From an uncultured Planctomycetia bacterium (lineage in GTDB: Bacteria; Omnitrophota; Gorgyraeia; Duberdicusellales; 4484-171), in assembly GCA_964536865.1 (NCBI GenBank), contig CAZHYN010000001.1, positions 60,001-92,000 of the forward strand: a DNA stretch of 32,000 bases, given 5' to 3'. This document shows positions 6,110 to 20,893 of the stretch, piece after piece. Each line of letters starts with the position of its first letter. The first letter of the stretch is position 1. Both the position numbers and the translations under genes were made by a program. Under the pieces are notes generated by a model. That model was given only the letters and a program-made list of their open reading frames with translations. It was not told the DNA's origin and ran no database searches.

Positions 6110-7064
6110 GAAAGTTGACCTAAATAAGATATCTTTATCTTTGGTACTTTTTATTTCTTTTCTCTACTTTCCCTACGTTTATACCCAAGAGAAGAGTGTT
6201 TCTTTAAAGGAGGAATATCGGAAACTAAAGGAGGCATATGATCAGGTAGTTAAAGACAGAGATAATCTTTTATTTCAGGCAAAAAATCTCCTGAAGTATA
6301 AAAAGAAGGTTAGGGAGCTGGAGAAAGAGCTCCAAGATTTACTCAAAGAGAAAGAGAAGTTTGATTTAGAGATTAAAAAAAGGGAAGACTATATTAAAGA
6401 GCTTAAGAAGAAAATTAAGGAGCTTACCCAAGAAAATACTCAGCAGTTGGAGCAAATCGCGGCTTTAAAAAATTATATTGAAAAGATGGAGGTTGAATAT
6501 AAAATAATTAATGAGACAAGGAAGAAAATTAAGGAGTTAAAGGACGAAAAAAGAAAGTTAAAAGGTGAGATAAGGAAATTAACTGCTAAGATAAAGAAGC
6601 TAGAGGACGAAAAGATCGATTTAAAAGCAGAGACTTTGGTATATAAGAGGCAATTCTACGAAATAAGGAGAAAGTATGAGGAGGCATTAGCTAAGAATAG
6701 AAGATTGGAAAAAAAATTAGCTGAGGTTCCTAAAAAGTTTGCTGAGATTGCTAGAGAAAATAAAGCTCTTATAAAAGAAACTGCGTTGATGCATTATAAC
6801 TTAGGAGTTTTTTATACCCAACATAAGGAGTATAAGCGAGCAATTGCTGAATTTGAAAAAGCAATTGAGCTTAATCCTGACGACCCTTATGCTCATTTTA
6901 ATCTTGGTTATATTTATGCTGAGTATCTCCTAAATCGTCCCAAGGCTATAGAACATTTCAGGCATTACCTCCGGTTGGCAGATAAGAACGATAAAGATGT
7001 TGATTGGGTAAAAAAATATATTCTCACTTGGCAGGCTTGGGAAGGAAAGACCCCTCTTAAGTGA
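6087..7064 (+). CDS. Membrane-anchored coiled-coil + TPR protein (paralog of 3156..4355; partner of secretin 2)
   Basis: N-terminal hydrophobic segment (ISLSLVLFISFLYFPYVY), about 200 aa of coiled-coil-like sequence, then a TPR block (MHYNLGVFYTQHKEYKRAIAEFEKAIELNPDDPYAHFNLGYIY...AIEHFRHYL) colinear with the C-terminus of 3156..4355. Confidence 0.7.
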   Translation: MKKIPKVEKVDLNKISLSLVLFISFLYFPYVYTQEKSVSLKEEYRKLKEAYDQVVKDRDNLLFQAKNLLKYKKKVRELEKELQDLLKEKEKFDLEIKKREDYIKELKKKIKELTQENTQQLEQIAALKNYIEKMEVEYKIINETRKKIKELKDEKRKLKGEIRKLTAKIKKLEDEKIDLKAETLVYKRQFYEIRRKYEEALAKNRRLEKKLAEVPKKFAEIARENKALIKETALMHYNLGVFYTQHKEYKRAIAEFEKAIELNPDDPYAHFNLGYIYAEYLLNRPKAIEHFRHYLRLADKNDKDVDWVKKYILTWQAWEGKTPLK

Positions 7065-7678: not shown

Positions 7679-8494
7679 ATTTATACTGAATATTGGGGCC
7701 TAACCTGTAAGCCATTTGAAAATGTAGCTGATCCTAACTTTTTCTATTGTTCTTCCACTCATCGAGAGGCTTTAGCAAGGATGATTTATGCGGTAAGAGA
7801 GAGAAAGTTAGGATTTCTTCTATTGGGCAGATATGGTTTAGGCAAGACTTTTTTGAGCAAGGCCTTAGAGAAAGAGTGTTCCGATAGTAACTATAGGTTT
7901 GTATCTATCTCCAATCCTCGACTTACTCCTTTAGAACTAGTTAAAGAAATCAGCTATCAGCTGGGAGTAGTTCCAGTAGATCAAAGTTGGACTAAGGTTG
8001 ATTATCTTCATAAGATAAAAGAGACTTTGGAGAAAAATTACCAGGAAGGTTTCCATACTGTCATTATAATAGATGAAATGCAAAGTATTGAAAGTAACGA
8101 AGTACTTGAAGAAATAAGGCTATTTTTCAATTTGCAGAAAGAGGTTATCTTTTTTACTTTAATCCTTTTGGCCCAATTATCTTTTAAAGAAAATTTAGAG
8201 AAGTTTCCTCACTTCAAACAAAGGATACCTATAAGATATGAACTGTCTCCTTTGGATGAAGGAGAAACAAAAAAGTATATAGAGTTCCGCTTAAAAAAAG
8301 CAGGTGCAGCTAAAGAGATTTTCTCTTCCAAGGCATGTAAGCAGATTTATGCTCTAAGTAAAGGAGTTCCTCGCTTGATAAATAATATTTGTGACTTAGC
8401 TCTTTTAGCAGGGTACTTAGATAGTTTGGAAGTAATCAAAGAAGATACTATCCTTCAAATAGCTCAGGATCTGGGGGAGACACCAAATGATTGA
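7679..8494 (+). CDS. ExeA/GspA/MshM-like AAA+ secretion ATPase, copy 2 (proposed ATT start)
   Basis: Walker A GRYGLGKTF, Walker B VIIIDEMQ, KGVPRLIN motif. The first ATG (7781) truncates the family-typical N-terminus. The frame is open from 7676 and encodes YTEYWGLTCKPFENVADPNFFYCSSTHREALARM. The only start-like codon is ATT 7679, which sits 6 nt after a near-perfect SD GGGAGGTGA (7667-7675). Confidence 0.75.
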   Translation: MYTEYWGLTCKPFENVADPNFFYCSSTHREALARMIYAVRERKLGFLLLGRYGLGKTFLSKALEKECSDSNYRFVSISNPRLTPLELVKEISYQLGVVPVDQSWTKVDYLHKIKETLEKNYQEGFHTVIIIDEMQSIESNEVLEEIRLFFNLQKEVIFFTLILLAQLSFKENLEKFPHFKQRIPIRYELSPLDEGETKKYIEFRLKKAGAAKEIFSSKACKQIYALSKGVPRLINNICDLALLAGYLDSLEVIKEDTILQIAQDLGETPND

Positions 8495-9503
8495 TTTTTC
8501 AAAAATTTTTGGAAACGGTAAAGATAAAGAGAAACCTTCATCCCCCATTCATTTTGCTAAGGAACCACCCAAAGAGAAACTGCCTTCTAAGAAGGAAGCA
8601 AAGAAAATTTCCGAGAAAGAAAAAATGTTAGGTGGTATAGATGTGAAGCTTCTATATAAGGAATCTCTTGTCTTAGCAGATAAAATTTTCAGCTCTTCCC
8701 AACCTATTTTACCGGAAGATGTAAAAGAAGTTAAGGAAATAGTTGAGAAAATTGTAGATTGTATAACTAGAGAGGGCGAACGGTTGGTTGAAATCACCTT
8801 TAATAAGCTCCCCCAGGAGTACCACTTTATTTCTCTGAATATGGTTAACGTGTGTGTTCTATCTCTATATATAGGAATAGCCTTAGGTCTTTCTCGAGAT
8901 AAGCTTATAGATCTAGGAATAGCTGCTCTCCTTCATGATTTAGGGATGAAAAAATATCAAAGTATAATTGATCAACCTCGAAAATTAACTCCCCAAGAGT
9001 ATAAGGAAATAGAAAATCATCCTATTGTAACTGCCCAGATGCTTTCTCATCTTAAAGAGTTAAGCAGTAAAATCTTAGAGAGTATAAGTCAAGAACATGA
9101 ACGTATGGATGGCTCGGGTTATCCTAAAAATTTAAAGAAAGAAGAAATTGATGAGTTTGCACAAATAATGGCAGTAGTAGATGTTTATGAAGCTTTAACT
9201 CACTCTCGTCCCTATCGCGAGGCTTATAAACCCTCAGAGGCAATTAAAATTATGTTAGAGATGAAAGAAAGATTCAGCTATACAGTGATGAATGTTTTTT
9301 TAGAAAAAATAGGAATTTATCCTAAAGGAAGTTATGTAGAGCTTAACACAAGAGAGATAGCCCAGATAGTACGACAGAATCCTAAACTTCCTTGTTATCC
9401 GGTAATCAAAATAATTTACAATAGTAAAGGAGAAAAATTAGATGAGCCTAAAGAGGTAGATTTGAGCACTAACCCGACAGTTTATATTAGGAAGTGTCTA
9501 TAA
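8487..9503 (+). CDS. HD-GYP domain protein (putative c-di-GMP phosphodiesterase or sensor)
   Basis: AALLHDLGM (HD motif) and EHERMDGSGYPKNL (HHE..DG.GYP motif with the first His replaced by Glu). No receiver domain is seen. 8-nt overlap with the upstream gene. Confidence 0.85.
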   Translation: MIDFSKIFGNGKDKEKPSSPIHFAKEPPKEKLPSKKEAKKISEKEKMLGGIDVKLLYKESLVLADKIFSSSQPILPEDVKEVKEIVEKIVDCITREGERLVEITFNKLPQEYHFISLNMVNVCVLSLYIGIALGLSRDKLIDLGIAALLHDLGMKKYQSIIDQPRKLTPQEYKEIENHPIVTAQMLSHLKELSSKILESISQEHERMDGSGYPKNLKKEEIDEFAQIMAVVDVYEALTHSRPYREAYKPSEAIKIMLEMKERFSYTVMNVFLEKIGIYPKGSYVELNTREIAQIVRQNPKLPCYPVIKIIYNSKGEKLDEPKEVDLSTNPTVYIRKCL

Positions 9504-9522: not shown

Positions 9523-10875
9523 ATGAAGAAATTTTCAGTATATATTTTAACAGCATTAATACTTTTTTCTCTTTATAATTTTGTGAAACTAAGGGTAGAG
9601 TTTTCTAATGAGAAAAAAAAAGGAGAGATGCTTAGTCAAAGATTAAAAGAAGCCGAAAGAGAGTCTCAACACCTAAAAGAGCTAATAAATAGTAGGGAGA
9701 AGGAGATAGATAAATTAAAGAGAGAATTAGAGGAACTTAAGTTTCCTCAGCGTCTAAAGAACGCCCTTGCTCAAGCGCAGGACCTTATAAGAAAACTGAA
9801 CGATGATTTAAGTAACTTAAGAAGAGAAAAAACTCGCTTGGAGAAGGAAAATTTTTCCCTTAAAGAGAGAATAGAGCTTAGTAACAAACGAATTACTCAA
9901 TTACTTGCTCAACTGGAGGAGGTAAGAGACAAATTTGAAGTTAGCAAGAAAGAAAGAGGTAGAGTTATAGCAAGAGAAATTACCAGATTGAAGAAAGCGT
10001 TAGAGGAGAAAGACAAGGAAACAGAGGATTTAAGAAAGGATTTAGAGAGGTATAAAGAGAAAGCTTCAGATTTAGAAAGAAAGGCCAAGTTCTTAAGAGC
10101 TCAACTTACTAAAGTTAAAAGAGGATTTTCTAAAGATACTTCAGATAGAAAGAGAGTGAAGCAATTAATGGCTTCTTTGGAGAGGGTAAATAGAGAAAAA
10201 GATACACTTTCTGCGGAGGTTAGACAACTTAGGTTAGAGAGAGAACAGCTACAGAGAAAAATTGATGAATTGTCCAAACTTAATCAAGATTTACAGCATC
10301 AGGTGAGCCAACTTAAAAAGCAAATAGAGGAAAAAGAAGAGCAGATAGTTAGTCTAGAGAAGAAAATTAAGAAAGGTGTCTCTTCAGTTGATACAGAGAC
10401 AAGACTCCTAAGAGCTAGACTAGCTCTCCAGAAAGAGGAATTTCAAAAAGTAAATACTCTCTATCAAGAACTAAAAGAGCAACTGAAAGATTTAGCAAAG
10501 ATTATCTCTGATAAAGAACAAGAGATAGAAAGTAAAGATAAAGAGATAGCTAGATTAAATCAGGAAATTTCTTATTTAAAACTTAGATTAGTAGATTTAG
10601 AAGATAGGTTGAAGGAGACACAGAGTATTCAGGACGAAGTTTTAAGAAGGTTTTCTGAAGTAGTAGAATTAAATTCTGCTCTTCAAGAAAAGTTAGGGAC
10701 GATTTCTACTTTTTTAGGTAAGCCCAGGGTTAAGAAGAAAACAACCTTAAGAGAAGAATTAACTTTACCTGAAGAACCAGAAGTAGTAAGTTCTTCGGAA
10801 GGGGGGGAGAAGGAGCGAGTAGAAAGTTTAAAGAAGCAGGTAGAAGTTATCCTTCATGAAAGTTCACAGGAATAG
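9523..10875 (+). CDS. Membrane-anchored long coiled-coil protein (third of this kind, no TPR)
   Basis: N-terminal TM (VYILTALILFSLYNFV), then about 400 aa of E/K/L/R-rich heptad-like sequence. Tightly spaced in the operon. Confidence 0.65.
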   Translation: MKKFSVYILTALILFSLYNFVKLRVEFSNEKKKGEMLSQRLKEAERESQHLKELINSREKEIDKLKRELEELKFPQRLKNALAQAQDLIRKLNDDLSNLRREKTRLEKENFSLKERIELSNKRITQLLAQLEEVRDKFEVSKKERGRVIAREITRLKKALEEKDKETEDLRKDLERYKEKASDLERKAKFLRAQLTKVKRGFSKDTSDRKRVKQLMASLERVNREKDTLSAEVRQLRLEREQLQRKIDELSKLNQDLQHQVSQLKKQIEEKEEQIVSLEKKIKKGVSSVDTETRLLRARLALQKEEFQKVNTLYQELKEQLKDLAKIISDKEQEIESKDKEIARLNQEISYLKLRLVDLEDRLKETQSIQDEVLRRFSEVVELNSALQEKLGTISTFLGKPRVKKKTTLREELTLPEEPEVVSSSEGGEKERVESLKKQVEVILHESSQE

Positions 10876-11731
10876 TTTTCTCTGGATAAAAACTTTTTTA
10901 AAACTACCACTAAAGATTATCTTTCTTTTAAGTGTAGGGGGAATTTTACTTTTTTCCTATGCCAGCTATTCTAAAACTCCTCAAGAAGAGGCTAAGGAGC
11001 ATTATCGCTTAGGGGAGATTTATTACCAGCATGGTCTTTATAAGGAAGCAGAAAGAGAATTTAAGAAAGCCTTACAGTTGCTCAAAAGAGAAGTTCCTTT
11101 GGAAGAGGAAGGGTCATTTCAAAAAGAGGGGAAACCTCCCTCTCCTTCTGAGGAATCTCAGTATATTATCTCCCCGGGCGATGTTCTTTATATAAGTGTG
11201 TGGGAGAATCCTGATTTGACTGGGGAGGTTATCGTACGCCCCGATGGGATGATTTCTTTCCCTCTTATAGATGAGGTAAAAGCAGCTGGGTTAACTATAT
11301 CTGAGTTAGATAAAGAGATGACTGAAATGCTTAAGGAATATATTCGTTTCCCTGACGTTTCTATCTCTCTAAGAGCAATGGGGGGTCAAAGGGTAATTAT
11401 TCTCGGAGAAGTAAAAAGTCCTGGAGTTTACTCTTTAAAAGGGAGAAAAACTGTTTTAGAGGCAGTAGCTTTGGCAGGAGGATTTACTAAGGACGCAGTT
11501 TTAAACAGTGTAATAGTAATAAAAGGAGGGCTCAAAAACCCCCATCCTAAACGGGTAGATTTAGCCAGCGCTCTTAAAAAAGGAAAGATGAAAGAAGATA
11601 TTGTGTTAGACTCTCAAGATATAGTCTTTGTTCCAAAAAAGTTTATTGCTGATTTAAATTATTTTTTAACTCAGATTTTGGGTCCTATATCCCGAGGAGT
11701 TTATACTGCCAAGGAAATTCAACGCTGGTAA
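10856..11731 (+). CDS. Short outer-membrane polysaccharide export (OPX, Wza-like) protein with an N-terminal TM/TPR extension
   Basis: Poly_export (PES) motif YIISPGDVLYISVWENPDLTGEVIVRPDGMISFPLIDEVKAAGLTISEL, then one SLBB-like domain (VIILGEVKSPGVYSLKGRKTVLEAVALAGGF). One TPR-like repeat at the N-terminus (HYRLGEIYYQHGLYKEAEREFKKALQL). No lipobox and no long C-terminal amphipathic helix. Confidence 0.8.
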   Translation: MKVHRNSFLWIKTFLKLPLKIIFLLSVGGILLFSYASYSKTPQEEAKEHYRLGEIYYQHGLYKEAEREFKKALQLLKREVPLEEEGSFQKEGKPPSPSEESQYIISPGDVLYISVWENPDLTGEVIVRPDGMISFPLIDEVKAAGLTISELDKEMTEMLKEYIRFPDVSISLRAMGGQRVIILGEVKSPGVYSLKGRKTVLEAVALAGGFTKDAVLNSVIVIKGGLKNPHPKRVDLASALKKGKMKEDIVLDSQDIVFVPKKFIADLNYFLTQILGPISRGVYTAKEIQRW

Positions 11732-11764: not shown

Positions 11765-12061
11765 GTGATGAGTTTTTGGCAGAAAAAATATAAAAAGAAT
11801 CCCAATATGGTATTTAGAAAGATTGCTGATGAGGTAATTTTAGTGCCCATAAGAAATAAAGTAGGTGATTTACAGAGTATCTATACCTTGAATGAAGTTG
11901 GTGCACGTATATGGAAGTTAATTAATGGAAAGAGAGAATTAGCCAAGATTAAGGAGATTCTTTTGGAGGAGTTCAGCGTCGATGTTCCTCGAGTTGAAGA
12001 AGATTTAAAAGCATTTGTACAGAAATTAGAAAGAATAGGAGCAGTAGAGGAAGTTAAGTAG
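11765..12061 (+). CDS. PqqD-family protein (RiPP recognition element)
   Basis: 98 aa. VFRKIADEVILVP...IYTLNEVGARIWKLINGKRELAKIKEILLEEFSVD...DLKAFVQKLERIGAV matches the PqqD/RRE pattern. The start may be GTG 11765 or ATG 11768. Confidence 0.8.
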   Translation: MMSFWQKKYKKNPNMVFRKIADEVILVPIRNKVGDLQSIYTLNEVGARIWKLINGKRELAKIKEILLEEFSVDVPRVEEDLKAFVQKLERIGAVEEVK

Positions 12062-12067
12062 CATAAT

Positions 12068-13189
12068 ATGGAGTGTATTTATATACCTAAGATTTCTTAT
12101 AGGGAGTTTAGTGAATCAATTCACAGGAAAGTAGGAGAAAAACGAATTCCCCTTAATGGATCTATAGAGGTTACTTTGCGTTGTAACTTAAGATGTCTAC
12201 ATTGTTACTGTAGTTACAACTCTCAAAAAAAAGAATTAAGTTATAAAGATTTCTGTCGTATTTTTGACGAGATTGCTGATATGGGGTGTTTGTGGCTGCT
12301 TATTACAGGAGGAGAGCCACTCTTAAGAGAGGATTTTTTAAAAATTTATACTTACGCTAAAAAGAAAGGATTTATTATAACACTTTTTACTAATGCAACC
12401 TTACTTACCCCTTCCATTGTGGATTGTTTAAAAGATTATCCTCCTTTTGCGGTGGAGGTTACTTTGTATGGAATAACTAAATCTACTTATGAGAAAATTA
12501 CTCGTATTCCTGGTTCATTTAACCGATGTATAGAAGGTATTCATCTTCTTTTAGAAAGAAAAATTCCTCTTAGGTTAAAAACAGTGGTGATGAATTTAAA
12601 TAAACACGAGCTTTTCAAGATAAAGAGATTTGCCGAAAATTTGGGAGTAGAGTTTAGATTTGACCCTCTTATTAACCCTAAATTAGATGGCTCTAAAGAA
12701 CCTTGCAAGTTGAGAATTTCGCCACAAGAAGTTATTGAGCTTGATTTAATGGATAAAAAAAGAAAAGAAGCATGGGAGGAGTTCTGTAAAAAATTTCCTT
12801 CGCCTATAAACTCAGAATGGCTTTACAGTTGTAGTGCAGGAAGAACTTCTTTCCACATAGATCCCTATGGAAATTTAAGTATTTGTATTATTGAAAGGTT
12901 CCATACCTACAATCTTTTAAAGGGCACATTTAAGGAAGGATGGGAAACTTTTATCCCTGAAAAAATACTCAGTCTTAAAAAAGATAATAGATACGAATGC
13001 AATCAGTGCCAGTTAAGAGACTTATGCGATCGTTGTCCTGGGTGGTCACAGCTTGAAGCAGGTAACCCTCAGGAAGTGGTAGATTATCTTTGTCAGATAG
13101 CTCATCTAAGAGCCAAAGTGTTTGGTTTTGGCAGAGAAAGAAAGGAGGGGGAGAAAGATGAAAAAGAGAGAAAAAAAATTCTACTCTAA
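12068..13189 (+). CDS. Radical SAM enzyme with a C-terminal SPASM domain (peptide-modifying maturase type)
   Basis: CxxxCxxC cluster CNLRCLHC near the N-terminus and a GGEPLL motif. The C-terminal Cys-rich SPASM pattern is CSAGRTSFHIDPYGNLSIC ... CNQCQLRDLCDRCPGW ... C. Confidence 0.85.
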   Translation: MECIYIPKISYREFSESIHRKVGEKRIPLNGSIEVTLRCNLRCLHCYCSYNSQKKELSYKDFCRIFDEIADMGCLWLLITGGEPLLREDFLKIYTYAKKKGFIITLFTNATLLTPSIVDCLKDYPPFAVEVTLYGITKSTYEKITRIPGSFNRCIEGIHLLLERKIPLRLKTVVMNLNKHELFKIKRFAENLGVEFRFDPLINPKLDGSKEPCKLRISPQEVIELDLMDKKRKEAWEEFCKKFPSPINSEWLYSCSAGRTSFHIDPYGNLSICIIERFHTYNLLKGTFKEGWETFIPEKILSLKKDNRYECNQCQLRDLCDRCPGWSQLEAGNPQEVVDYLCQIAHLRAKVFGFGRERKEGEKDEKERKKILL

Positions 13190-13331
13190 ACCTCAGATAA
13201 AAGAAGTTAATTTAGTGCCTCAAGAAGCAGTCCTTCTTGGTTGTAAAACTACAGCTGATCCCAGTGGGAGAACAGTTGGGCGGAATAATTGTGGTAACAG
13301 AGATAACTTTTGTCAAACCGCGGTAAGTTAG
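13158..13331 (+). CDS. Candidate RiPP precursor peptide (57 aa): MKKREKKFYSKPQIKEVNLVPQEAVLLGCKTTADPSGRTVGRNNCGNRDNFCQTAVS
   Basis: An internal ATG of track ORF 13122..13331 is preceded by GGAGG (13144-13148) at 9-nt spacing. It overlaps the last 32 nt of the rSAM gene. Basic N-terminus, a YSKPQI (YxxPx[LI]) leader-like motif, three Cys in the C-terminal half and a C-terminal Ser. Confidence 0.5.
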   Translation: MKKREKKFYSKPQIKEVNLVPQEAVLLGCKTTADPSGRTVGRNNCGNRDNFCQTAVS

Positions 13332-13360
13332 TTGTAATAAGTTAACTTTATTTAGTAAGG

Positions 13361-14233
13361 ATGCTAAAGGTAGAAATAGGGGGAGTGGCTATTTCTCTTT
13401 CTTTTGTAGATGGTAAAGGTTGGATACCTCAAGTTAGTAAAGCAATGCATTCTTTTCTTACTAGGAGAAAAAGGTTCGATTTAGCTCTTAAGGTTCACTG
13501 CGGTTTTCTTCCCCATCTGAATGTAAAGAGAGTTGTGTTTAATTCGGGAGGAAACTGGACTCTTTTTAAGGATAGAAATAATAGATTAGTTTTTTCTCTT
13601 ACTTCCCCTGCTACCGGTCCTCATCCTTATGCTTTGGCAGTTGTTGATTCTCAATTTAAAGTAGGGAATTTATACCTTAGAGAGCCAAATTACTTTCTTT
13701 CTAAAAAAGCTATTGTGAATCCTTTAGAGTACCCCTTAGATGAGGTTTTAGTAGTGCATCTTCTCTCAAGAAATAGAGGAATACTTCTTCATGGATGCGG
13801 AATTAAATACAAAGGAGAGGGGCTACTTTTTTTAGGAACTTCGGGAAGAGGAAAAAGCACCATTGCCAATCTTTGGAAGGAAGAGAAAGAAGTCGCCATT
13901 TTAAGTGACGATAGAATTGTTGTCCGCAAGAAAGGCTCCAATTTCTGGATATATGGTACTCCCTGGCACGGAGATGCAAAATTATGTTCTCCTCAGAAAG
14001 TAGTTCTAAAGAAGATATTTTTTCTTAAGCACGGCAAGAAAAATTCGCTTAAAAAGATGAAGTTAAGTGAAATAATTTCTCAGTTAGTTGTCTGTTCTTT
14101 CCCTCCTTTTTGGGATAAGAAAGGTATGAAGTTTATCTTAAGTTTTTGTTCTGATTTAGCAAAAGTTCCTTCTTATGAGCTAAATTTCCTACCTAACAGG
14201 AGTGTTTTGGATCTTATCAAACGTAAGGTGTGA
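13361..14233 (+). CDS. HPr-kinase-like (HprK-related) serine kinase family protein
   Basis: LHGCGIKYKGEGLLFLGTSGRGKSTIANLW ... LSDDRIVV ... GTPWHGD resembles the HprK C-terminal P-loop core (lHG..v...g.GvLi.G.SG.GKS ... DD.v). Confidence 0.75.
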   Translation: MLKVEIGGVAISLSFVDGKGWIPQVSKAMHSFLTRRKRFDLALKVHCGFLPHLNVKRVVFNSGGNWTLFKDRNNRLVFSLTSPATGPHPYALAVVDSQFKVGNLYLREPNYFLSKKAIVNPLEYPLDEVLVVHLLSRNRGILLHGCGIKYKGEGLLFLGTSGRGKSTIANLWKEEKEVAILSDDRIVVRKKGSNFWIYGTPWHGDAKLCSPQKVVLKKIFFLKHGKKNSLKKMKLSEIISQLVVCSFPPFWDKKGMKFILSFCSDLAKVPSYELNFLPNRSVLDLIKRKV

Positions 14234-14730
14234 AGTGCCAAAATTCTGAATTTTTAAAGTTAAGTAAGGATATATTAGAGAAAGGGTTTTCTCTTCGCTT
14301 TCAGGTAAGGGGGGCAAGTATGTACCCTTTTATCAAAAGCGGTGATACCGTGGAAATAGAGCCAAAGAATATCTCCAAAATAAACTATGCGGATATTATC
14401 CTTTACGCCAATTACGAAGGAAAAATTGTAATCCATCGAGTAGTAAAAAAAATCAAGAAGAATAATGAAACTATCCTAGCAACTAGAGGAGACTTTCTGC
14501 CACCTTCCTTAAGAGAGTTTGTTCCTTCAGAGAAAGTATTAGGTAAAGTTGTAGTTATTAGAAAGGCAAATAGGATGTTTAGAATAGATAGGGGATTTTT
14601 AAGGCTGTTGAATATTGTATATACCAAACTTTTACCTATTATTAGGTGGGGACATAGTTTTGGTGCCAAACTGCTAAAGTTTACCCCGAGCCACAGAAAG
14701 TTACCTGTGACATTACATCGGGGTGGATAA
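14230..14730 (+). CDS. S26-family signal-peptidase-like protease (archaeal/ER type, Ser-His)
   Basis: RGASMYPFIKSGDTVEI (Ser box), KIVIHRVV (His box), TRGDF (GDN-like box). GTGA start/stop overlap with the kinase gene. Hydrophobic C-terminal segment. Confidence 0.65.
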   Translation: MKCQNSEFLKLSKDILEKGFSLRFQVRGASMYPFIKSGDTVEIEPKNISKINYADIILYANYEGKIVIHRVVKKIKKNNETILATRGDFLPPSLREFVPSEKVLGKVVVIRKANRMFRIDRGFLRLLNIVYTKLLPIIRWGHSFGAKLLKFTPSHRKLPVTLHRGG

Positions 14731-14793
14731 ATGTCTATCCAAATACCTCCAAGCATAATTTCAAAGCAATATGCGATTGTTATATCGGGGTGG
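14717..14793 (+). repeat. 10-bp G-rich direct repeat ATCGGGGTGG (14717-14726 and 14784-14793)
   Basis: Read directly. Both copies are translated as (H/Y)-R-G-G in the reading frame of their own gene. Confidence 0.9.
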
Positions 14794-15925
14794 CCGGGGT
14801 TTACTAAAGCAAATTAAAAATATTATGAGGGGAGGGGATAACTTTATTACTGTATTGAGCTGTTCTATCTGGAATAAGGAGAAAAGTGGAGAGATAGAGG
14901 AAGTAATAAAGAATAATTTAGATTGGGATTATGTATTAAGGAAATCCCGTAAAGAGGGGGTTTCTTCTTTGATTTATTATTGCTTAAAGAAATTCGAGTT
15001 ACAAAAATATTTGCCTTTTAAGACCTTAAAAACCTTAGAGGAAGCCTATTATAAAAATTCTCTAAGGAATATTATTATGATTAGTGAAACAAAAAAGGTA
15101 TTAGAATCTTTTAAAAAAGAAGGTATAGAATCAATTATTCTTAAAGGAGTTTTCTTGGCAGAGAAAATTTATAGGAATATTGCTTTGAGAGAGATGACAG
15201 ATGTTGATATTCTAATAAGGAGAAAAAATGTCAAGAAAGCAAATAGAATTTTAAATTCTCTAGGATACCCAACTCCGAAATACTATGAAGATCTTTTGAA
15301 AATATCTTCTTCCCTTAATACTTTAATGTATAAAGGTAATATACGAGTCCATCTTCACTGGCATCTTATAAATTCAACTTGGCCTTTAAACTTTTTAATA
15401 GAAAAAATTAGTATAGAAAGAATCTTTGAATACGCCAAACCTATAAAGATTGATACTTTAGATACTCTAACTTTGTCCAATGAGCATCTTTTAATTTACC
15501 TTTGCTATCATCTTTTTAATCACTCTTTTGACAGGCTGATTCTTCTGGTAGATATTCTCGGCTTGTTAAATTCTTATAGTATTGACTGGAATTTTGTTAT
15601 AGAAGAGGCAGAACGTTTTAAGCTTTCATTTATTCTCTATTATGTTTTATCTTTTATATCTCAAAAAAAGGAAGAAAAGGTTCCTTACTTAGAAAGATTG
15701 AAACCATCTAAATCTTATCTCAAAAAACTTCCTCCTTCTTCTTTTACTTCTTATTTTATATACCTTCTTCTTCAAAAGGGATTTAAAAAGAAGATAAAGT
15801 TCCTTATAAATACCATTTTCCCTCCTCCCTGTGTAGTAGCTCATAGTTTCTCCATTTCTCCAAAGGAAGTAACCAGAGCTCATTATTTTTTTCGTCTTAT
15901 TAAACCTTTTCTTAAATTCTTCTAA
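14771..15925 (+). CDS. Nucleotidyltransferase-fold protein of the PF14907 (NTP_transf_5) type
   Basis: LDWDYVLRKSRKEGVSSLIYYCL at the N-terminus, then ILKGVFLAEKIY...MTDVDILIRRKNVKKANRILNSLGY and HLHWHL. This layout is typical of the uncharacterised nucleotidyltransferases found in lasso/RiPP clusters. The start is uncertain (ATG 14771 or 14826) and there is no clear SD. Confidence 0.6.
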   Translation: MRLLYRGGRGLLKQIKNIMRGGDNFITVLSCSIWNKEKSGEIEEVIKNNLDWDYVLRKSRKEGVSSLIYYCLKKFELQKYLPFKTLKTLEEAYYKNSLRNIIMISETKKVLESFKKEGIESIILKGVFLAEKIYRNIALREMTDVDILIRRKNVKKANRILNSLGYPTPKYYEDLLKISSSLNTLMYKGNIRVHLHWHLINSTWPLNFLIEKISIERIFEYAKPIKIDTLDTLTLSNEHLLIYLCYHLFNHSFDRLILLVDILGLLNSYSIDWNFVIEEAERFKLSFILYYVLSFISQKKEEKVPYLERLKPSKSYLKKLPPSSFTSYFIYLLLQKGFKKKIKFLINTIFPPPCVVAHSFSISPKEVTRAHYFFRLIKPFLKFF

Positions 15926-15948
15926 GATGTTATCAATTGTTTTTCTTT

Positions 15949-16761
15949 TTAGGAGTAAAGGAGACTGCCGTGTTTTTTAGCTTGCCTTAGAGCTAATTTA
16001 AAGGAAAGGAGAGCTATGGGAAGGAGGATAAGAAAGAAGAGAGTGAGGCAGGCTATTTCAACTTTTACTTCTTTTAGAGAAGCCCCCATAGCTATACTCT
16101 TCCTCATACCTCTTAAAGCATAGGTTATAGGTAGAAGGTAGGAAATTTTTTGTAACACTTGCGGTAATACCTTAATAGGAAAGTAAACTCCTCCTAAAAA
16201 TCTTGAAATCCCATTTAATACCCAATTAATAGGGTTTCCTCTCTTAAACACAAGAATGAAGCTTGCTGATAGAACTCCTAAGGCACTGAAAGAGAGAATG
16301 GTTAAGAGTAAAATTACTAGGGAGGAGATGAGATTTATCTTACTTAGATTGAATCCAAAAATAAGCCACCCTAAAAAAAGATACACCATTACCCTTAAAG
16401 ATACAAAGAAAAAGTTCCATACCGCTCCTAAAAGTAAAATAGTACCAATACTAGTAGGAGACATAAGAAGGATTTCTAATGTTCCTTCGGACTGTTCATA
16501 GTGGATGACTTGGCTGAAACTATTTAGGGCAGCGGAGAGATATCCACTGAAGGCAAGTCCAATTAAGACAAAGGAAAAGTAGTCCCCTCCAAATTCTTCT
16601 AAGTATTTAGAAGCTCCCTCTCCAAATAGCTTGGAGACGAAAAAGAAAGTAGCAACCGAGGCAAAAATAGAGATAAAATCTAAGAGGAAAGACAAACGGT
16701 AGCTTGAATTAATAAGAAAATCTCTCTTTAAAAAAGCAAGTAGCTTCCTAAGAAATATCAT
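15949..16761 (-). CDS. ABC-2 type transporter permease
   Basis: 270 aa with about 6 hydrophobic helices. 14-nt overlap with the upstream ATPase gene on the minus strand. Confidence 0.8.
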   Translation of the reverse strand: MIFLRKLLAFLKRDFLINSSYRLSFLLDFISIFASVATFFFVSKLFGEGASKYLEEFGGDYFSFVLIGLAFSGYLSAALNSFSQVIHYEQSEGTLEILLMSPTSIGTILLLGAVWNFFFVSLRVMVYLFLGWLIFGFNLSKINLISSLVILLLTILSFSALGVLSASFILVFKRGNPINWVLNGISRFLGGVYFPIKVLPQVLQKISYLLPITYALRGMRKSIAMGASLKEVKVEIACLTLFFLILLPIALLSFKLALRQAKKHGSLLYS

Positions 16762-17464
16762 TCTTTATTATTTCTCCATATAAGTCTTTTAAAGAAGTTT
16801 GAATCTCCTTTATATTTTTAATTAGGAGAATTTCTCCCCTATTCATAATAGCAATTCTGTCAGCGACAGTTTCTGCTTCTTCCAAAAAATGGGTAGCAAA
16901 GAGGATTGTTTTTTTGAACTCTTTCGCTAATCTCTGCATAAGCTTTCTAAATTCTTTAGCCGTTAAGGGATCCAAACTTTTGGTAGGCTCATCCATTATA
17001 ATTATTTCCTTTTCCAGAATAAGAGTTCTTAAAAGGGAAAGGCGATGTTTGGTTCCTGTAGAATATTGCCAGAAAGGTTTGTCTAAGTCCTCTACTTCTA
17101 AAATTTGTGAATAATTCTTTATTCTCTCTCTAATTTGATGGGAAGAAAGATTATAAATTGTAGCAAAGAATTCCAAATTCTGCTTTGCAGTAAGTTGAGG
17201 ATAAAATCCATAAGTTTCCCCAGAAAAATAAGCAACCCCCCCTTTAACCTTTATCATTCCTCTTTCAGGAAGAATTAATCCACAAATTATTTTTAGAAGA
17301 GTAGTTTTACCTGCACCGTTAGGACCTAATAGAGCAAGCGCCTCCCCTCTATTTACTTTAAGATGTACTGAATTTAGAGCATAGATCCTGCGTGGGAGAA
17401 GAAAAAAATGGAAGATATCTCTCTTTATAAGAAAAGACTTGCTTAGCCCCTCTACTTCAATCAT
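16748..17464 (-). CDS. ABC transporter ATP-binding protein (DrrA/CcmA-like, ABC-2 subfamily)
   Basis: Walker A GPNGAGKTT, signature-like YSTGTKHRLSL, Walker B IIIMDEPT, H-loop FATH. It lacks the Wzt-type motifs (NGaGKST, DE.laVGD). Confidence 0.9.
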   Translation of the reverse strand: MIEVEGLSKSFLIKRDIFHFFLLPRRIYALNSVHLKVNRGEALALLGPNGAGKTTLLKIICGLILPERGMIKVKGGVAYFSGETYGFYPQLTAKQNLEFFATIYNLSSHQIRERIKNYSQILEVEDLDKPFWQYSTGTKHRLSLLRTLILEKEIIIMDEPTKSLDPLTAKEFRKLMQRLAKEFKKTILFATHFLEEAETVADRIAIMNRGEILLIKNIKEIQTSLKDLYGEIIKNDIS

Positions 17465-17471
17465 TTTCTAA

Positions 17472-17500
17472 AACCATACCAGAGACCTTATATCTTGTCA
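17472..17500 (-). promoter_or_regulatory. Putative sigma70-type promoter for the ABC operon (possibly leaderless)
   Basis: Read on the minus strand: TTGACA (17500..17495), a 17-nt spacer, then TATGGT (17477..17472). The predicted TSS falls about on the ATG at 17464, and there is no SD upstream of that ATG. Confidence 0.4.
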
Positions 17501-17523
17501 ACGGTAAGAAAGTTGTGTTAAAA
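17494..17523 (+). promoter_or_regulatory. Putative sigma70-type promoter (extended -10) for 17541..20893
   Basis: TTGTCA (17494-17499), an 18-nt spacer, then TGtTAAAAT (17515-17523). The -35 overlaps the minus-strand -35. Confidence 0.3.
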
Positions 17524-17540
17524 TTTTAGAGAGTAAAAAG

Positions 17541-18938
17541 ATGAAAAAAAGAGTTTTACACCTTTCCTTATTACTAATCTCTATATCTGTAGTAGTCTTT
17601 CTACTAAGTTCTCCTTGCTTTCCCCAAGAAGAAAAAAGGTTCCAAATTGTAGGAGAGATTTTTGGTGTACCAGTACCTATTGGAAATTACTACTTTGCTA
17701 AAAGAGTAGTTTTAACTTTCAATGCCAAGTGGCGTCCTACACCTAAAGATGAGGAGGAATTGGAAGATTTGGTCTGGCAGGAACTTATTCTTTCTTATGA
17801 GGCTTATCGTCGGGGGATAGAAGCTAGTAGCAAGGAGATAGATGAGCATATAGATAAGATACTAAAAGCAGAGAAGGTAAATTTCGATTGGCGGAAAGAA
17901 AAAGAAAAGTTTGAAGAGTGGACAAAAAATAAATTGGGCGTATCTCCTCAGGTATTTAGAAATCAGATAGAACATCTAATAAAGCTAGAGAAGCTCCAGC
18001 AACAAGTAATAGAGAGTATTGAACCTGAAGTTACCGAGGAGGAAGCCTACCAGAAATTTCTCGATGAGTGTAATACTCTTTCTGTAGAGTTAGTACAGTT
18101 TGATGAATTAAAAGAGGCAGAAAAGTTTTATAAGGAAGTTTCAAAACCTCAGGAAGAAGGAGCGTTAGAGAAACTTATTTGGGAAGATCTTCTCCTTTCC
18201 TATGAAGCATTTAAAAGAAAAGTAGAGGTAACTAAAGAAGAAATAGAAAAAAATATTTATAGGTATTTGAGAGGAAGGGAGGTTAGATTTAACTGGAAGA
18301 AAGATGAGAGAAAATTTAAAACGTGGCTTAAAGGTAATTTAGGTTTATCTCAAGAGGAATTCAAGAAATTTATTATTCACTTTGCAAAGATTGATAAATT
18401 GAGGCAGTTAATCTATAGAAAAGAAGCTCCTCCTATTAGTGAGGAGAGATATACATATTTTCTCAGAGAGAAAAGAGATATCGAGAGAGCTTATCAAAGG
18501 TTCTCTAAAGAATTTGGCTTTCCTCAAAATGCAGTATTGATATTTCCTACTTTCCAAGATGCTGAGGTATTTTATAAACGATTTAAGAGAGAAGCTACTC
18601 CTTGGGAAGATAGAAAAAGAAAAAAGCCTGATAGATTTAAAAGGCCGGGTTTCGTAGCTTTAGATTTTCTAATTCATATGTGGGGATTCAAAAGAGAAGA
18701 TGCTTACAGGATGATAGAAAGAAAGGTTGGAGATATTTACCCTCCCGCCCCTATTTATAAAGGATATGGAGTATTTAAAATTCTTCGTGTTCGTAAAGCT
18801 AATCCTTCTGATTTTAGCAAGCGAAAAAAATACTATTTTGATAAGCTTAAGAGGATCAAAAAATATCAAAGATTTAAAGAATGGCTAAATTCTCTGAAGG
18901 AGGAAGCTAATATAAAAGTCTATAGTGATAAATTTTAA
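17541..18938 (+). CDS. Secreted SurA/PrsA-N-terminal-like chaperone repeat protein (tentative)
   Basis: Signal peptide. Two internal ~83-aa repeats (LEDLVWQELILSYEAYRRGIEASSKEIDEHI... and LEKLIWEDLLLSYEAFKRKVEVTKEEIEKNI...). The C-terminal GYGVFKILRV resembles the parvulin/SurA GyhIikv motif. The assignment is weak. Confidence 0.4.
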   Translation: MKKRVLHLSLLLISISVVVFLLSSPCFPQEEKRFQIVGEIFGVPVPIGNYYFAKRVVLTFNAKWRPTPKDEEELEDLVWQELILSYEAYRRGIEASSKEIDEHIDKILKAEKVNFDWRKEKEKFEEWTKNKLGVSPQVFRNQIEHLIKLEKLQQQVIESIEPEVTEEEAYQKFLDECNTLSVELVQFDELKEAEKFYKEVSKPQEEGALEKLIWEDLLLSYEAFKRKVEVTKEEIEKNIYRYLRGREVRFNWKKDERKFKTWLKGNLGLSQEEFKKFIIHFAKIDKLRQLIYRKEAPPISEERYTYFLREKRDIERAYQRFSKEFGFPQNAVLIFPTFQDAEVFYKRFKREATPWEDRKRKKPDRFKRPGFVALDFLIHMWGFKREDAYRMIERKVGDIYPPAPIYKGYGVFKILRVRKANPSDFSKRKKYYFDKLKRIKKYQRFKEWLNSLKEEANIKVYSDKF

Positions 18939-18988: not shown

Positions 18989-20893
18989 ATGAATCATCGC
19001 GAATTATCTTTAAGAGATTATCTAAGAATAATTCGCAAGAGAAAGTTTATTATAATTTCCTCTTTTATCGTCTTTATTGGTTTTTCTCTGTTTTACACCT
19101 CAGGACAACTTCCCATTTACGAAGCTACCACGACTGTAAAGATTGAGGAAAGAAAGACAATAGCTGGTCTCCTTACTGAATGGATTGTTTATACTCCTGG
19201 AGATATAATGGAGACACAAGTTAAAATTATAAAAGGTTTTCCTGTCCTAAAGAAGGTAGCTTTAAAACTAGGTTTAGTAAAGGAGGAAGATCCTGTTTCT
19301 AAAATTTATGAGATAGTAGGAAGGCTTCAGTCTCAAATCTCTACCGAAAGGGTTGGAAAAACTAACATTATCAAGATCACTGCTATCTCTCATGATCCCG
19401 AAGAGGCAATGAAATTAGCAAATACAGTAGCTGGTGTTTACATTGAAGAGAATCTTTATGAAAAGAATAAGCAGGCAAGAACAGTAAGGCTATTTATTGA
19501 GGAACAGTTAACTACGCTTAAAGAGAGACTCCATAGAGCGGAAGAGAAGATAAAAAAATTTAGTGAGGAGGAGGAAAATATTCAGATTGCTGAGGAGGTT
19601 CAGAAAAAACTAAACGATCTTGAGTTCCAGTTAGCTTCTCTTCTTCAAAAATATACAGAAAAACATCCAAAAGTAATTCAAATAAAGGAACAGATAAGAG
19701 AGTTGAGAGAGCAATCAAAGAAATTTTCTGCTAAAGCGTTAGAGTACGCACGTCTTAAGAGGGAAGTAGAAGTAAATAAAAAATTATATGCGATGTTGAG
19801 AGAAAAATTAGAAGAAGCAAGAATTACCGAGGCAGAAAAGGTTCCCGATGTAAGTGTTGTAGATCCAGCTGTTCTTCCTAAAACTCCCATATCTTCCTCA
19901 GGAAAGTTAGGGGTTTTTGTAGGAGGAGTGTTAGGGTTAGTGGTAGGGATAATTTTAGCTTTTATTGCTGAAAATTTAGATACATCTATTGGGACAATTG
20001 AAGATGTGGAAAGTATTGTGGGTTTGCCTGTTTTAGGAGTTGTTCCTTCTATAATCAGAGAAGTTGAAATAAAGAGAAGTTTCTTTAAAAAAATTAGAGA
20101 TACAATCTTTCCTCCCAAGATAGATGAATCTACAGAAAGGTACGTAAGATTAATTGTTTGTTATAAACCTACTTCCTCAGCAGCAGAAAGCTATAAAAGT
20201 ATACGGACAAATTTAAAATTGGATTCTTCTAAGAAAACAATTCTTATTACTAGTGCTAATCCTCAAGAAGGAAAATCTGCCCTTTTAATAAACTTAGGTT
20301 TAGCCTTCTCTGAAGAAGGTAGAAAGACTCTTTTGTTTGCTTCCGATTTAAGAAGGCCAGTTTTAGCTAAGACCTTTGGGATTTCTAAAAAACCTGGAAT
20401 AGTTGATGTTCTTACGGGGAAAGTAAAATTAGAAGAGGCAATTAAGGGAGTTTCTGATATCTTATTAGGAGATATGAAATTTGAGAAGGTGGTGACTGCT
20501 CCCTCTATGAGGAATGTATGGATATTGCCATGTGGTTCCATTCCTTCTAACCCTACAGTTCTATTGAGTTCAGTAATGATGGATGAGTTGATAAGAGAAG
20601 TTAGGGAAAAGTTCGATGTAATTCTATTTGACTCCCCTCCAGTTTTAGCAGTAGCAGACACAAGTATATTAGCCCCTAAAGTAGATACAGTAGTGGTATG
20701 TTATGAAATCGGTAGAACTTCTAAAAGTGCGTTGGTACGTGCAAAGACCCAACTAGAGACAGTGGGAACTCATATAGAAGGGATTGTACTTAATCATATA
20801 AGACCACAGACAGAAAGTCTTTATACCTATCCCTACTATTATAAATATCGGTATTACGGACGAGAGGAAGGTTCCGAATTAGAGAAGAGTTAA
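18989..20893 (+). CDS. Polysaccharide co-polymerase fused to a BY-tyrosine kinase (Wzc/GumC/EpsG-like, PCP-2a)
   Basis: Wzz-like N-terminus with TM1 (FIIISSFIVFIGFSLFY), a periplasmic coiled-coil and TM2 (LGVFVGGVLGLVVGIILAFIA). Kinase Walker A ANPQEGKS, A' LLFASDLRRP, Walker B VILFDSPP. Tyr-rich tail YTYPYYYKYRYYG. Confidence 0.85.
   Translation: MNHRELSLRDYLRIIRKRKFIIISSFIVFIGFSLFYTSGQLPIYEATTTVKIEERKTIAGLLTEWIVYTPGDIMETQVKIIKGFPVLKKVALKLGLVKEEDPVSKIYEIVGRLQSQISTERVGKTNIIKITAISHDPEEAMKLANTVAGVYIEENLYEKNKQARTVRLFIEEQLTTLKERLHRAEEKIKKFSEEEENIQIAEEVQKKLNDLEFQLASLLQKYTEKHPKVIQIKEQIRELREQSKKFSAKALEYARLKREVEVNKKLYAMLREKLEEARITEAEKVPDVSVVDPAVLPKTPISSSGKLGVFVGGVLGLVVGIILAFIAENLDTSIGTIEDVESIVGLPVLGVVPSIIREVEIKRSFFKKIRDTIFPPKIDESTERYVRLIVCYKPTSSAAESYKSIRTNLKLDSSKKTILITSANPQEGKSALLINLGLAFSEEGRKTLLFASDLRRPVLAKTFGISKKPGIVDVLTGKVKLEEAIKGVSDILLGDMKFEKVVTAPSMRNVWILPCGSIPSNPTVLLSSVMMDELIREVREKFDVILFDSPPVLAVADTSILAPKVDTVVVCYEIGRTSKSALVRAKTQLETVGTHIEGIVLNHIRPQTESLYTYPYYYKYRYYGREEGSELEKS

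Follow-up and report, generated by a model that had tools for sequence, protein, structure and literature searches.

A probable RiPP cassette pairing a radical SAM/SPASM enzyme with an HprK-like kinase in an Omnitrophota polysaccharide locus

The DNA described here (the window) is a stretch of 32,000 nucleotides from an uncultured Planctomycetia bacterium that GTDB places in the Omnitrophota (GenBank assembly GCA_964536865.1, contig CAZHYN010000001.1, positions 60,001 to 92,000 of the forward strand). Bases 11765-17464 in window numbering, which is used for all coordinates below unless another locus is named, hold a cassette that is real and conserved, in which six closely packed genes face a convergent pair of ABC transporter genes. 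We interpret it as probably a biosynthetic cassette for a peptide that is made on the ribosome and modified after translation (RiPP), and as a radical S-adenosylmethionine (SAM)-containing relative of the linear polyphosphorylated peptide (LPP) biosynthetic gene clusters of Bacillota (Popov et al., Nat Commun 2026; PMC13381572). Its genes recur in the same order in many lineages, and a 57-aa open reading frame (ORF) between the radical SAM and kinase genes is confidently identified as its precursor. The components are as follows.

11765-12061, + strand: discrete PqqD-family RiPP recognition element (RRE), 98 aa (PF05402, E 4.5e-16)
12068-13189, + strand: radical SAM/SPASM-type peptide maturase with the motif CNLRCLHC, 373 aa (PF04055, E 2.7e-20)
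13158-13331, + strand: precursor peptide ORF, 57 aa, ATG at 13158, sequence MKKREKKFYSKPQIKEVNLVPQEAVLLGCKTTADPSGRTVGRNNCGNRDNFCQTAVS (Shine-Dalgarno sequence and homology)
13361-14233, + strand: HprK-like P-loop kinase, putatively of the PF27840 'ScmC' family, with the motif GTSGRGKST, 290 aa
14230-14730, + strand: putative leader peptidase, soluble, archaeal/SipW-type, signal peptidase I (SpI)-like, family S26, 166 aa (TIGR02228, 57.4 bits, above the cut-off of 51.85)
14771-15925, + strand: NTP_transf_5 tailoring enzyme of nucleotidyltransferase (NTase) fold, 384 aa (PF14907, E 1.5e-53)
15949-16761, - strand: convergent ABC-2 type permease, DrrB-like (PF01061, E 5.5e-18)
16748-17464, - strand: convergent ABC ATPase, DrrA-like (PF00005, E 9e-24; TIGR01188, 158.6 bits, sub-threshold)

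Organization and conservation of the cassette

A first-pass annotation of the window, made from the letters alone, had listed seven features in this order, and all of them are present, with support from profiles, folds and motifs; its HprK-like, PF14907 and SPASM-type assignments hold, the last with a sub-threshold Pfam score. It had also described the six + strand genes as tightly packed or overlapping, which agrees with intergenic distances of +6 nt (RRE to radical SAM), -32 nt (radical SAM to small ORF, an overlap), +29 nt (small ORF to kinase), -4 nt (kinase to S26 peptidase, an overlap) and +40 nt (S26 to NTase). For the ABC pair the top NCBIfam matches are DrrB and DrrA, each below its cut-off. 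Neither an Asn-synthetase-like lasso cyclase nor a transglutaminase-like B2 protease is found among window ORFs of at least 90 aa, as had been noted, and both are likewise not found in the annotated homologous loci L001, L003 and L005. Rfam searches at gathering thresholds return zero RNA families in the window, and a promoter scan predicts no more promoters than expected from shuffled sequence. Terminator-like sites number 15 against a shuffle mean of 6.3, and were not used to set operon boundaries.

With each species represented by one genome, a scan detects kinase relatives in at least 370 genomes, and 80 loci were retrieved for comparison. These span at least 17 lineages, all represented by metagenome-assembled genomes, and include Omnitrophota, Aminicenantes, WOR-3, Desantisbacteria, Aerophobetes, KSB1, Nitrospinae, Nitrospirota, Chloroflexota (Anaerolineae and Dehalococcoidia), Desulfobacterota, Acidobacteriota, Myxococcota, Planctomycetes, Actinomycetes, Bdellovibrio and others. 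The conserved order is PqqD-type RRE, radical SAM/SPASM enzyme, small ORF and HprK-like kinase, followed in some loci by the S26 peptidase and the NTase, with an ABC-2 exporter. Components were counted with hidden Markov models iterated from the window proteins in 87 loci (86 plus the window), many of which are cut by contig ends: the kinase is found in 87/87, the precursor in 82/87, the radical SAM enzyme in 79/87, the RRE in 73/87 (immediately 5' of the radical SAM gene), the S26 peptidase in 58/87, the NTase in 45/87, the ABC ATPase in 35/87 (convergent and next to the permease in many) and the permease in 26/87, in the same convergent position as in the window. Flanks of the loci were examined by targeted profile scans; six-frame ORFs in the high-GC loci are too noisy for a broad Pfam census. 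Matching gene order is also seen in independently annotated contigs of three kinase homologs, from Omnitrophota, an ENA bin and Aminicenantia. Because it recurs in 86 independent loci, the arrangement is beyond chance, and the synteny comparison that the first-pass annotation had called for finds the genes co-conserved across phyla.

The precursor peptide

The 57-aa ORF is the cassette's precursor, and it represents a newly recognisable family. Its ATG is preceded at a distance of 8-9 nt by a strong Shine-Dalgarno sequence (AGGAGG, 13144-13149), and independent annotation of three contigs called a gene of 53-57 aa between the radical SAM and kinase genes. A conserved small ORF was what the first-pass annotation expected to accompany the cassette, and a homologous one does so in 82 of the 87 loci. 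No Pfam or NCBIfam model matches the peptide, and a search with its profile yields 371 database clusters, every one of them labelled 'hypothetical'.

The consensus of 75 unique locus peptides is KKxYxKPx[ILV]xxVxLxPEEAVLxxCK, followed after the Cys-Lys pair by a Gly/Ser/Thr/Ala-rich stretch, two further Cys and a C-terminal Gly-Ser; the core reads AVL-x-x-C-K...C-x4-6-C-x3-4-G-S. Cys29 and Lys30 are invariant in the alignment. The leader motif in the window is Y9-x-x-P12-x-I14, and motifs of the form [Y/W]xxPx[L/V/I/F/A] are those read by discrete lasso-type RREs (PMC13381572). Among the best 120 of the 371 clusters, all 120 place the Tyr-Pro motif exactly 20 residues ahead of Cys-Lys, and all 120 have three Cys and a C-terminal Ser. 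The wider set of 181 unique cores is nearly as uniform: 174 have exactly three Cys, C1 and C2 are 12-15 residues apart, C2 and C3 4-6, and C3 lies 5-7 residues from the end, so that core length and all three Cys spacings are kept over about 28-33 residues. Of these cores 96% end in Ser and 4% in Thr, mostly as a Gly-Ser ending, and Ser or Thr closes 75/75 of the locus peptides. Within the core only Cys-Lys is better conserved than the C-terminal Gly-Ser, and the terminal Ser/Thr is the sole conserved hydroxyl residue in about 180 precursors.

The kinase

Homologs of the kinase number 2386, and PF27840 'ScmC' is a precomputed annotation on all of the best 120; one carrier, P0001, is 98% identical to the window kinase, and the annotation is marked 'weak' in some places. 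Across 24 diverse homologs H144, C146, K165, D183 and D184 are invariant, as are the motifs GxSGxGK(S)T, LSDDR and YGTPWHGD. The family profile aligns to the catalytic core of HPrK/P, comprising the His, the P-loop and the (A/S)DDR element, and the AlphaFold2 model (pLDDT 93) has HPrK/P and PEP carboxykinase as its top Foldseek matches, with probability 1.0.

H144, K165, D183 and D184 correspond to the His-Lys-Asp-Asp set of the lasso-tailoring kinases (PMC9266682), whose target for phosphorylation is a conserved Ser at the C-terminus of the linear precursor (PMC9266682, PMC6993621). D183 and D184 are the counterparts of D158 and D159 of PsmK, mutation of which abolishes activity (PMC6993621); here and below, LppK, LppS, PadeK and PsmK were compared through published residues and descriptions. 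The suggestion in the first-pass annotation that an HprK-like/NTase pair tailors a C-terminal Ser therefore gains strong circumstantial support, as the sole conserved hydroxyl is the terminal Ser/Thr and the His-Lys-Asp-Asp set is kept.

The recognition element and the radical SAM enzyme

The RRE gives a near-full-length but sub-threshold alignment to lasso_PqqD_Bac (NF033536), and its closest solved structure in a PDB search is the lasso RRE TbiB1 (5v1u, E 2.9e-7). The radical SAM enzyme has no RRE domain of its own, because its SAM motif begins at residue 39. The CX3CX2C motif (C39, C43 and C46) is 100% conserved among 75 homologs, and conservation of seven auxiliary Cys (C255, C273, C311, C314, C320, C323 and C342) is 96-100%. 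These are arranged as CX12GX4C ... CX2CX5CX2C ... C, and the reference motif of SPASM domains reads CX9-15GX4C ... CX2CX5CX3C ... C. Full-length but sub-threshold NCBIfam alignments are obtained to MftC (equivalog TIGR03962, 105.2 bits, cut-off 265) and NirJ2, with further sub-threshold matches to StsB and AlbA and, for one homolog, PapB; the closest PDB relatives are SkfB and PqqE. Membership in the mycofactocin, PQQ, GeoRSP and other radical SAM equivalogs was considered and rejected, as the scores fall below the NCBIfam thresholds.

Two loci depart from the usual layout in this region. In the Desantisbacteria locus L017 (5565-7817) two tandem radical SAM genes, the first very divergent, precede the precursor; this recalls the SynChlorMet layout, yet the Scm cut-offs are still missed. 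In the Deltaproteobacteria locus L019 (2059-4022) about 2 kb including a PIN-domain gene, which may be a toxin-antitoxin insertion, separates the RRE and radical SAM genes.

The peptidase, the nucleotidyltransferase and accessory enzymes

The S26 peptidase lacks an N-terminal membrane anchor ahead of Ser30, and G28-x-S30-M-x-P33, H69-R70 and G87-D88 are invariant in 57 homologs. S30, H69 and D88 parallel S29, H68 and D93, the catalytic residues of LppS, shown by experiment to be the RRE-dependent leader peptidase of the LPP systems (PMC13381572). For the NTase, all 45 homologs compared keep D144-x-D146 and D261. The enzyme belongs to the same family as LppN, PsmN likewise being of the NTase family, and its D144xD146 parallels D134/D136 of PsmN, which are required for addition of hexose onto the phosphate (PMC6993621). 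PDB sequence searches with the NTase and with the S26 peptidase gave no meaningful match.

In 10 loci the S26 peptidase and the NTase form a single polypeptide, and the two are therefore tied to one pathway. Fusions of S26 to a GNAT domain, to the NTase or to both are present at L046 (8758-9789), L048 (8860-9894), L018 (3892-5973) and L036 (3845-6070), and fusions to GNAT and/or NTase also in L001, L007, L009, L012, L013, L022 and L035. These fusions suggest acetylation of the N-terminus freed by leader removal, and that the late steps are physically coupled.

Variation in accessory enzymes of this kind is typical of RiPP clusters. A gene for a PRMT-like enzyme, of protein arginine methyltransferase type, is inserted 3' of the kinase in L005 (2620-3837), L017 (8855-10006) and L050 (8828-9964), and the precursor core of L005 is unusually Arg-rich: CKTCGRRAPTRPPCGRGRRFRQLGT. 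Fourteen loci of Chloroflexota, Acidobacteriota, Myxococcota and Desulfatiglandales have, next to the cassette, a large protein of 760-2140 aa that ends in a Peptidase_C25 (gingipain family) domain, examples being L033 (9387-12341), L049 (9629-13135), L066 (9368-15802), L074 (8835-11831) and L086 (9127-11415). Several of these genes lie directly 3' of the kinase or S26 gene. In most of the 14 loci no NTase is seen, and they may represent a second sub-type with a different processing or attachment enzyme.

A proposed pathway and its alternatives

A plausible scenario starts with binding of the precursor by the discrete PqqD-type RRE, predicted from the observed leader motif Y9-x-x-P12-x-I14 and RRE homology. 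The radical SAM/SPASM enzyme would then modify the three-Cys core, with thioethers the most likely outcome, and this is the least certain step. The HprK-like kinase is predicted to phosphorylate, once or several times, the invariant C-terminal Ser/Thr on its side chain, like PadeK and PsmK in lasso pathways, because of its motif and of the conservation of the precursor. Onto this phosphate the NTP_transf_5 enzyme may add a hexose or another group, as PsmN does. Leader removal would fall to the SpI-like Ser/His/Asp peptidase, acting in an RRE-dependent manner by analogy with LppS, and the convergent ABC-2 transporter would export the product. LppS cleaves 16 residues past the leader Tyr, after F-E-T (PMC13381572). 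The same spacing applied here would place the cut near the conserved E-E-A|V-L, as E-E-A | V-L-x-x-C-K with Glu at -2 as in LPP, and the predicted window core is then VLLGCKTTADPSGRTVGRNNCGNRDNFCQTAVS. Signal-peptidase cleavage of the AXA type just before Cys-Lys was considered and dropped, position -1 often being N, F or P; the candidate site 16 residues past Tyr, by analogy with LppS, is the better fit.

Several observations weigh against this scenario. The match of the kinase to HPrK profiles is weak at the level of sequence (PF07475, E 7.6e-4), and Pfam SPASM (PF13186) scores 16.2 bits against a cut-off of 21.5, although aligned across the full profile. The radical SAM enzyme is near no characterised maturase, with every NCBIfam match far under its cut-off, and MftC, its best full-length match, is no thioether synthase. 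Because glycans too can leave through ABC-2 transporters, this one might be part of the surrounding polysaccharide machinery. Some loci lack the S26 and NTase genes, in part through contig ends. Site preference of such kinases varies, as LppK targets Ser3 and not the C-terminus, and LppK rejected Thr, with which 4% of the present precursors end (PMC13381572). LppN had no detectable activity in heterologous expression (PMC13381572), and NTase function is for this reason established for PsmN alone. Every modification proposed here is assigned by homology, and the thioether, phosphate and sugar put forward in the first-pass annotation stay predictions drawn from sequence and analogy.

The chemistry of the radical SAM step could be of another kind. 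The product would then be a linear phosphopeptide of LPP type on which this enzyme catalyses epimerisation, MftC-like C-terminal oxidation or dehydrogenation, with the Cys forming a disulfide or binding metal. We regard this as unlikely. It would account for MftC being the best full-length match, as MftC acts on the C-terminal residues of its precursor with a PqqD-type partner, and for the strong conservation of the C-terminal Gly-Ser, and the 4-6 residues between C2 and C3 are compatible with a small disulfide loop. However, the MftC score is 105 bits against the 265 of its cut-off, an odd number of strictly conserved Cys together with an invariant Cys-Lys better fits sites recognised by an enzyme than one disulfide, and there are the sub-threshold matches to StsB and AlbA, and to PapB for a homolog. 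Cys-rich cores with SPASM enzymes are also the typical pairing of sactipeptides and ranthipeptides. Another reading, likewise with the MftC similarity in its favour, would make the peptide a sacrificial precursor of a small peptide-derived cofactor or other small molecule, in the manner of PQQ or mycofactocin, which the S26 peptidase trims, the NTase glycosylates and the exopolysaccharide (EPS) pathway uses. The mycofactocin pathway combines a discrete PqqD-type RRE, a radical SAM/SPASM enzyme, a conserved C-terminal dipeptide, a peptidase and sugar-type tailoring, a logic that the cassette resembles. This origin nevertheless seems highly improbable: the preservation of core length and Cys spacings over about 28-33 residues points to a product of peptide size, the peptidase appears by analogy to be a leader peptidase of LppS type acting beside an RRE-bound leader, the S26-GNAT fusions suggest that a newly made peptide N-terminus is acetylated, and the conserved partners of the cassette include a dedicated exporter and no redox enzymes.

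It might also be supposed that the HprK-like protein, the NTase and the ABC-2 transporter are polysaccharide machinery that lies beside an independent pair of radical SAM enzyme and RRE acting on the peptide. The position of the cassette between two polysaccharide export genes (below) and the export of glycans by ABC-2 transporters in other systems speak for such a division, as does the unproven function of the NTase in LPP (PMC13381572). Against it, the kinase lies directly 3' of the precursor gene in about 80 loci, including some with no detected EPS marker such as L005 and L028, the S26-NTase fusions tie the NTase to peptide processing, and the invariant C-terminal Ser/Thr agrees with what kinases of this type are known to modify. 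We consider a division of this sort very unlikely, and retain the interpretation of the whole cassette as one peptide pathway.

The polysaccharide locus and neighbouring genes

The cassette lies within a Wzx/Wzy-type EPS locus that occupies the wider window and includes two secretins, TPR proteins, an AAA_22 ATPase, an HD-GYP-type protein, a Wzy_C protein, a flippase, methyltransferases and glycosyltransferases. The genes closest to the question are these.

7781-9503, + strand: AAA_22 ATPase (XrtA/PEP-CTERM-associated-ATPase-like, sub-threshold) and HD-GYP-type HD_5 protein
10856-11731, + strand: outer-membrane polysaccharide export (OPX) protein (PF02563, Poly_export, E 9.3e-25)
18989-20893, + strand: polysaccharide co-polymerase (PCP)/tyrosine autokinase with Wzz, GNVR and AAA_31 (TIGR01007, 152.5 bits, above the cut-off of 108)

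The OPX gene ends 34 nt upstream of the RRE gene, and its top NCBIfam match, pepcterm_export, is sub-threshold. Across the EPS context the top NCBIfam matches are XrtA/PEP-CTERM-associated ATPase, exporter, chain-length determinant and tyrosine kinase, all below cut-off. If Poly_export, Wzz/tyrosine kinase, Wzy_C, AAA_22 and HD_5 of the window are taken as markers, an EPS marker is found within 8 kb of the cassette in 15/33 loci of at least 14 kb, in several phyla. This is an underestimate, because L001 scored none yet has glycosyltransferases, an aminotransferase and a formyltransferase around it. The enrichment is probably large, judged against an assumed genome share of a few per cent for such markers. 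About 14-15 of the 87 loci, the window included, have the AAA_22 and HD-GYP pair next to the cassette; they come from Omnitrophota, Aminicenantes and Desulfobacterota, and the pair varies in arrangement and may be on either strand.

The cassette probably works jointly with the XrtA/PEP-CTERM-like EPS locus that surrounds it. The first-pass annotation had placed it between the OPX and PCP genes, correctly, and had suggested that its product may be tied to the EPS or the cell envelope, for which the comparison supplies a recurrent genomic link. A bolder interpretation, which we hold to be quite unlikely, is that the product is a radical SAM-crosslinked three-Cys peptide with a phosphate-linked sugar on its C-terminal Ser, representing an undescribed and phylogenetically very broad RiPP class, and that it is not an antibiotic but an integral component of EPS systems of the Wzx/Wzy, XrtA/PEP-CTERM-like kind. 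Such a peptide could serve the glycan as primer, anchor or cap, linked to it by a phosphodiester that the kinase and NTase form. Alternatively, it could be exported as a signal and, with the co-conserved AAA_22 ATPase and HD-GYP protein, act as a gate on capsule assembly. If true, this would explain why LPP and paeninodin clusters of Bacilli are sited in capsule loci.

Among the other neighbouring genes, we note a second AAA_22 gene at 141-800 and, upstream of the EPS genes, a tandem duplicated module (1417-4355 and 4352-7064) in which a secretin gene precedes a gene for a TPR protein containing a coiled-coil region. The two secretins (STN, Secretin_N and Secretin domains) are 579 and 585 aa long and the TPR proteins 399 and 325 aa; it is unusual to find secretins with a Wzx/Wzy-type locus. 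Between the HD-GYP and OPX genes, at 9523-10875, is a gene for a 450-aa protein that is almost wholly coiled coil with an N-terminal hydrophobic segment, and homologs are at the equivalent position in L021 and L035. Beyond the ABC genes, a 465-aa SurA_N-like protein (17541-18938) has, by eye, an apparent internal repeat of about 100 aa. Homologs occupy the same position 3' of the ABC genes in three Omnitrophota loci, L001 (14848-16236), L007 (7281-8669) and L018 (7775-9217), where a second radical SAM gene then follows; that of L001 encodes a SPASM domain and has a pilin-like (N_methyl) gene before it. Between the ABC ATPase (- strand) and the SurA_N-like gene (+ strand), the 76 nt at 17465-17540 contain back-to-back promoter-like hexamers on both strands, TTGACA-17-TATGGT and TTGTCA-18-TAAAAT, each with TG.

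Relationship to known systems

The radical SAM-containing, HprK/NTase-tailored and SpI-processed RiPP variant is new, in that it is not described in the literature searched. No report found there pairs HprK kinase/NTase tailoring or an S26 leader peptidase with a radical SAM enzyme; nothing was found on SynChlorMet, PF14907 appears only in unrelated phosphonate work, and what was found there on RiPPs or radical SAM enzymes of Omnitrophota consists of general surveys of biosynthetic gene clusters. The first-pass annotation had named the SynChlorMet cassette, which is computationally defined and is not known to have a reported precursor. Both combine a radical SAM/SPASM enzyme, a PqqD homolog and an ScmC-type (HprK-like) protein, and PF27840 'ScmC' is found on the kinase homologs. 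However, a single radical SAM enzyme stands here in place of two, and the cassette also has an S26 peptidase, an NTase and a precursor that can be identified. Membership was rejected on the four equivalogs TIGR04248-TIGR04251, all of whose cut-offs are missed (ScmC 17.1 bits against 125, ScmD 26.7 against 100, ScmE 70.9 against 400, ScmF 73.1 against 400), as they also are in L017 and L056. On sequence, the relationship is at the superfamily level only, and the comparison stands to that extent. The confidently identified precursor family, with its invariant Cys-Lys, three Cys and C-terminal Ser/Thr, now accompanies an ScmC-type cassette.

Sactipeptide and ranthipeptide systems share with the cassette the CX3CX2C radical SAM motif, a seven-Cys C-terminal region, here putatively of SPASM type, and a Cys-containing core, and the MftB/MftC and PqqD/PqqE pairs share the discrete PqqD-type RRE; the difference from these and from mycofactocin is that no equivalog threshold is reached here. 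The paeninodin and pseudomycoidin lasso clusters are similar in the late steps, having a His-Lys-Asp-Asp kinase, a precursor with a C-terminal Ser and a D-x-D partner of the NTase family, and also in the lasso-B1-like RRE (TbiB1 being the best PDB match) and the leader of YxxPxL type. Their kinases PadeK, ThcoK and PsmK phosphorylate a strictly conserved C-terminal Ser (PMC6993621, PMC9266682), and PsmN adds one or two hexoses onto the phosphate (PMC6993621). In contrast, neither cyclase C nor the B2 cysteine protease is found among the window ORFs of at least 90 aa or in the annotated homologous loci, and the core enzyme of the cassette is a radical SAM/SPASM protein.

The closest parallel is with the LPP systems. 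The first-pass annotation had proposed a distinct RiPP class, which is overstated, because the LPP family has already been published with the combination of RRE, SpI/S26 peptidase, HprK and NTP_transf_5 in capsule loci (PMC13381572). Four of the five LPP core components are common to the window cassette. The likeness takes in the discrete PqqD RRE, the TIGR02228 S26 peptidase, the HprK-like kinase, NTP_transf_5 and an ABC exporter, together with a Tyr-x-x-Pro leader motif and embedding in capsule or EPS loci. LPP clusters are embedded in capsular polysaccharide loci, as are paeninodin clusters in Bacilli, and their co-occurrence table lists PqqD, NTP_transf_5 and TIGR02228; LPP and paeninodins are stated to be restricted to Bacillota, with their role unknown (PMC13381572). 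The radical SAM/SPASM enzyme sets the present loci apart, being conserved in most of them, and no radical SAM enzyme is mentioned in the LPP text or supplements searched (PMC13381572). Of the LPP leader YxxPxVLxHQxIxFETxxS only YxxPx[ILV] is shared with KKxYxKPxIxxVxLxPEEAVLxxCK. LppK polyphosphorylates Ser3 of the core (PMC13381572), and no conserved Ser is found near the leader/core junction in the present precursors. LPP precursors are 35-200 aa long with variable C-termini, whereas those described here have a three-Cys core ending in Ser/Thr, and the LPP exporter is MsbA-like, whereas here an ABC-2 permease (PF01061) accompanies a separate DrrA-like ATPase. Finally, LPP is a system of Bacillota, and the present cassettes are from Omnitrophota, Aminicenantes, Chloroflexota, Desulfobacterota, Acidobacteriota, Myxococcota and others.

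The comparison extends the logic of LPP, RRE-guided leader removal by an SpI-like peptidase combined with an HprK/NTase pair, beyond Bacillota into at least 17 lineages that are mostly uncultured, and shows that it can be combined with a radical SAM core enzyme. The association of kinase/NTase-tailored peptides with capsule and EPS loci recurs in unrelated phyla, which makes a role in the envelope testable with a small and synthesizable set of genes.

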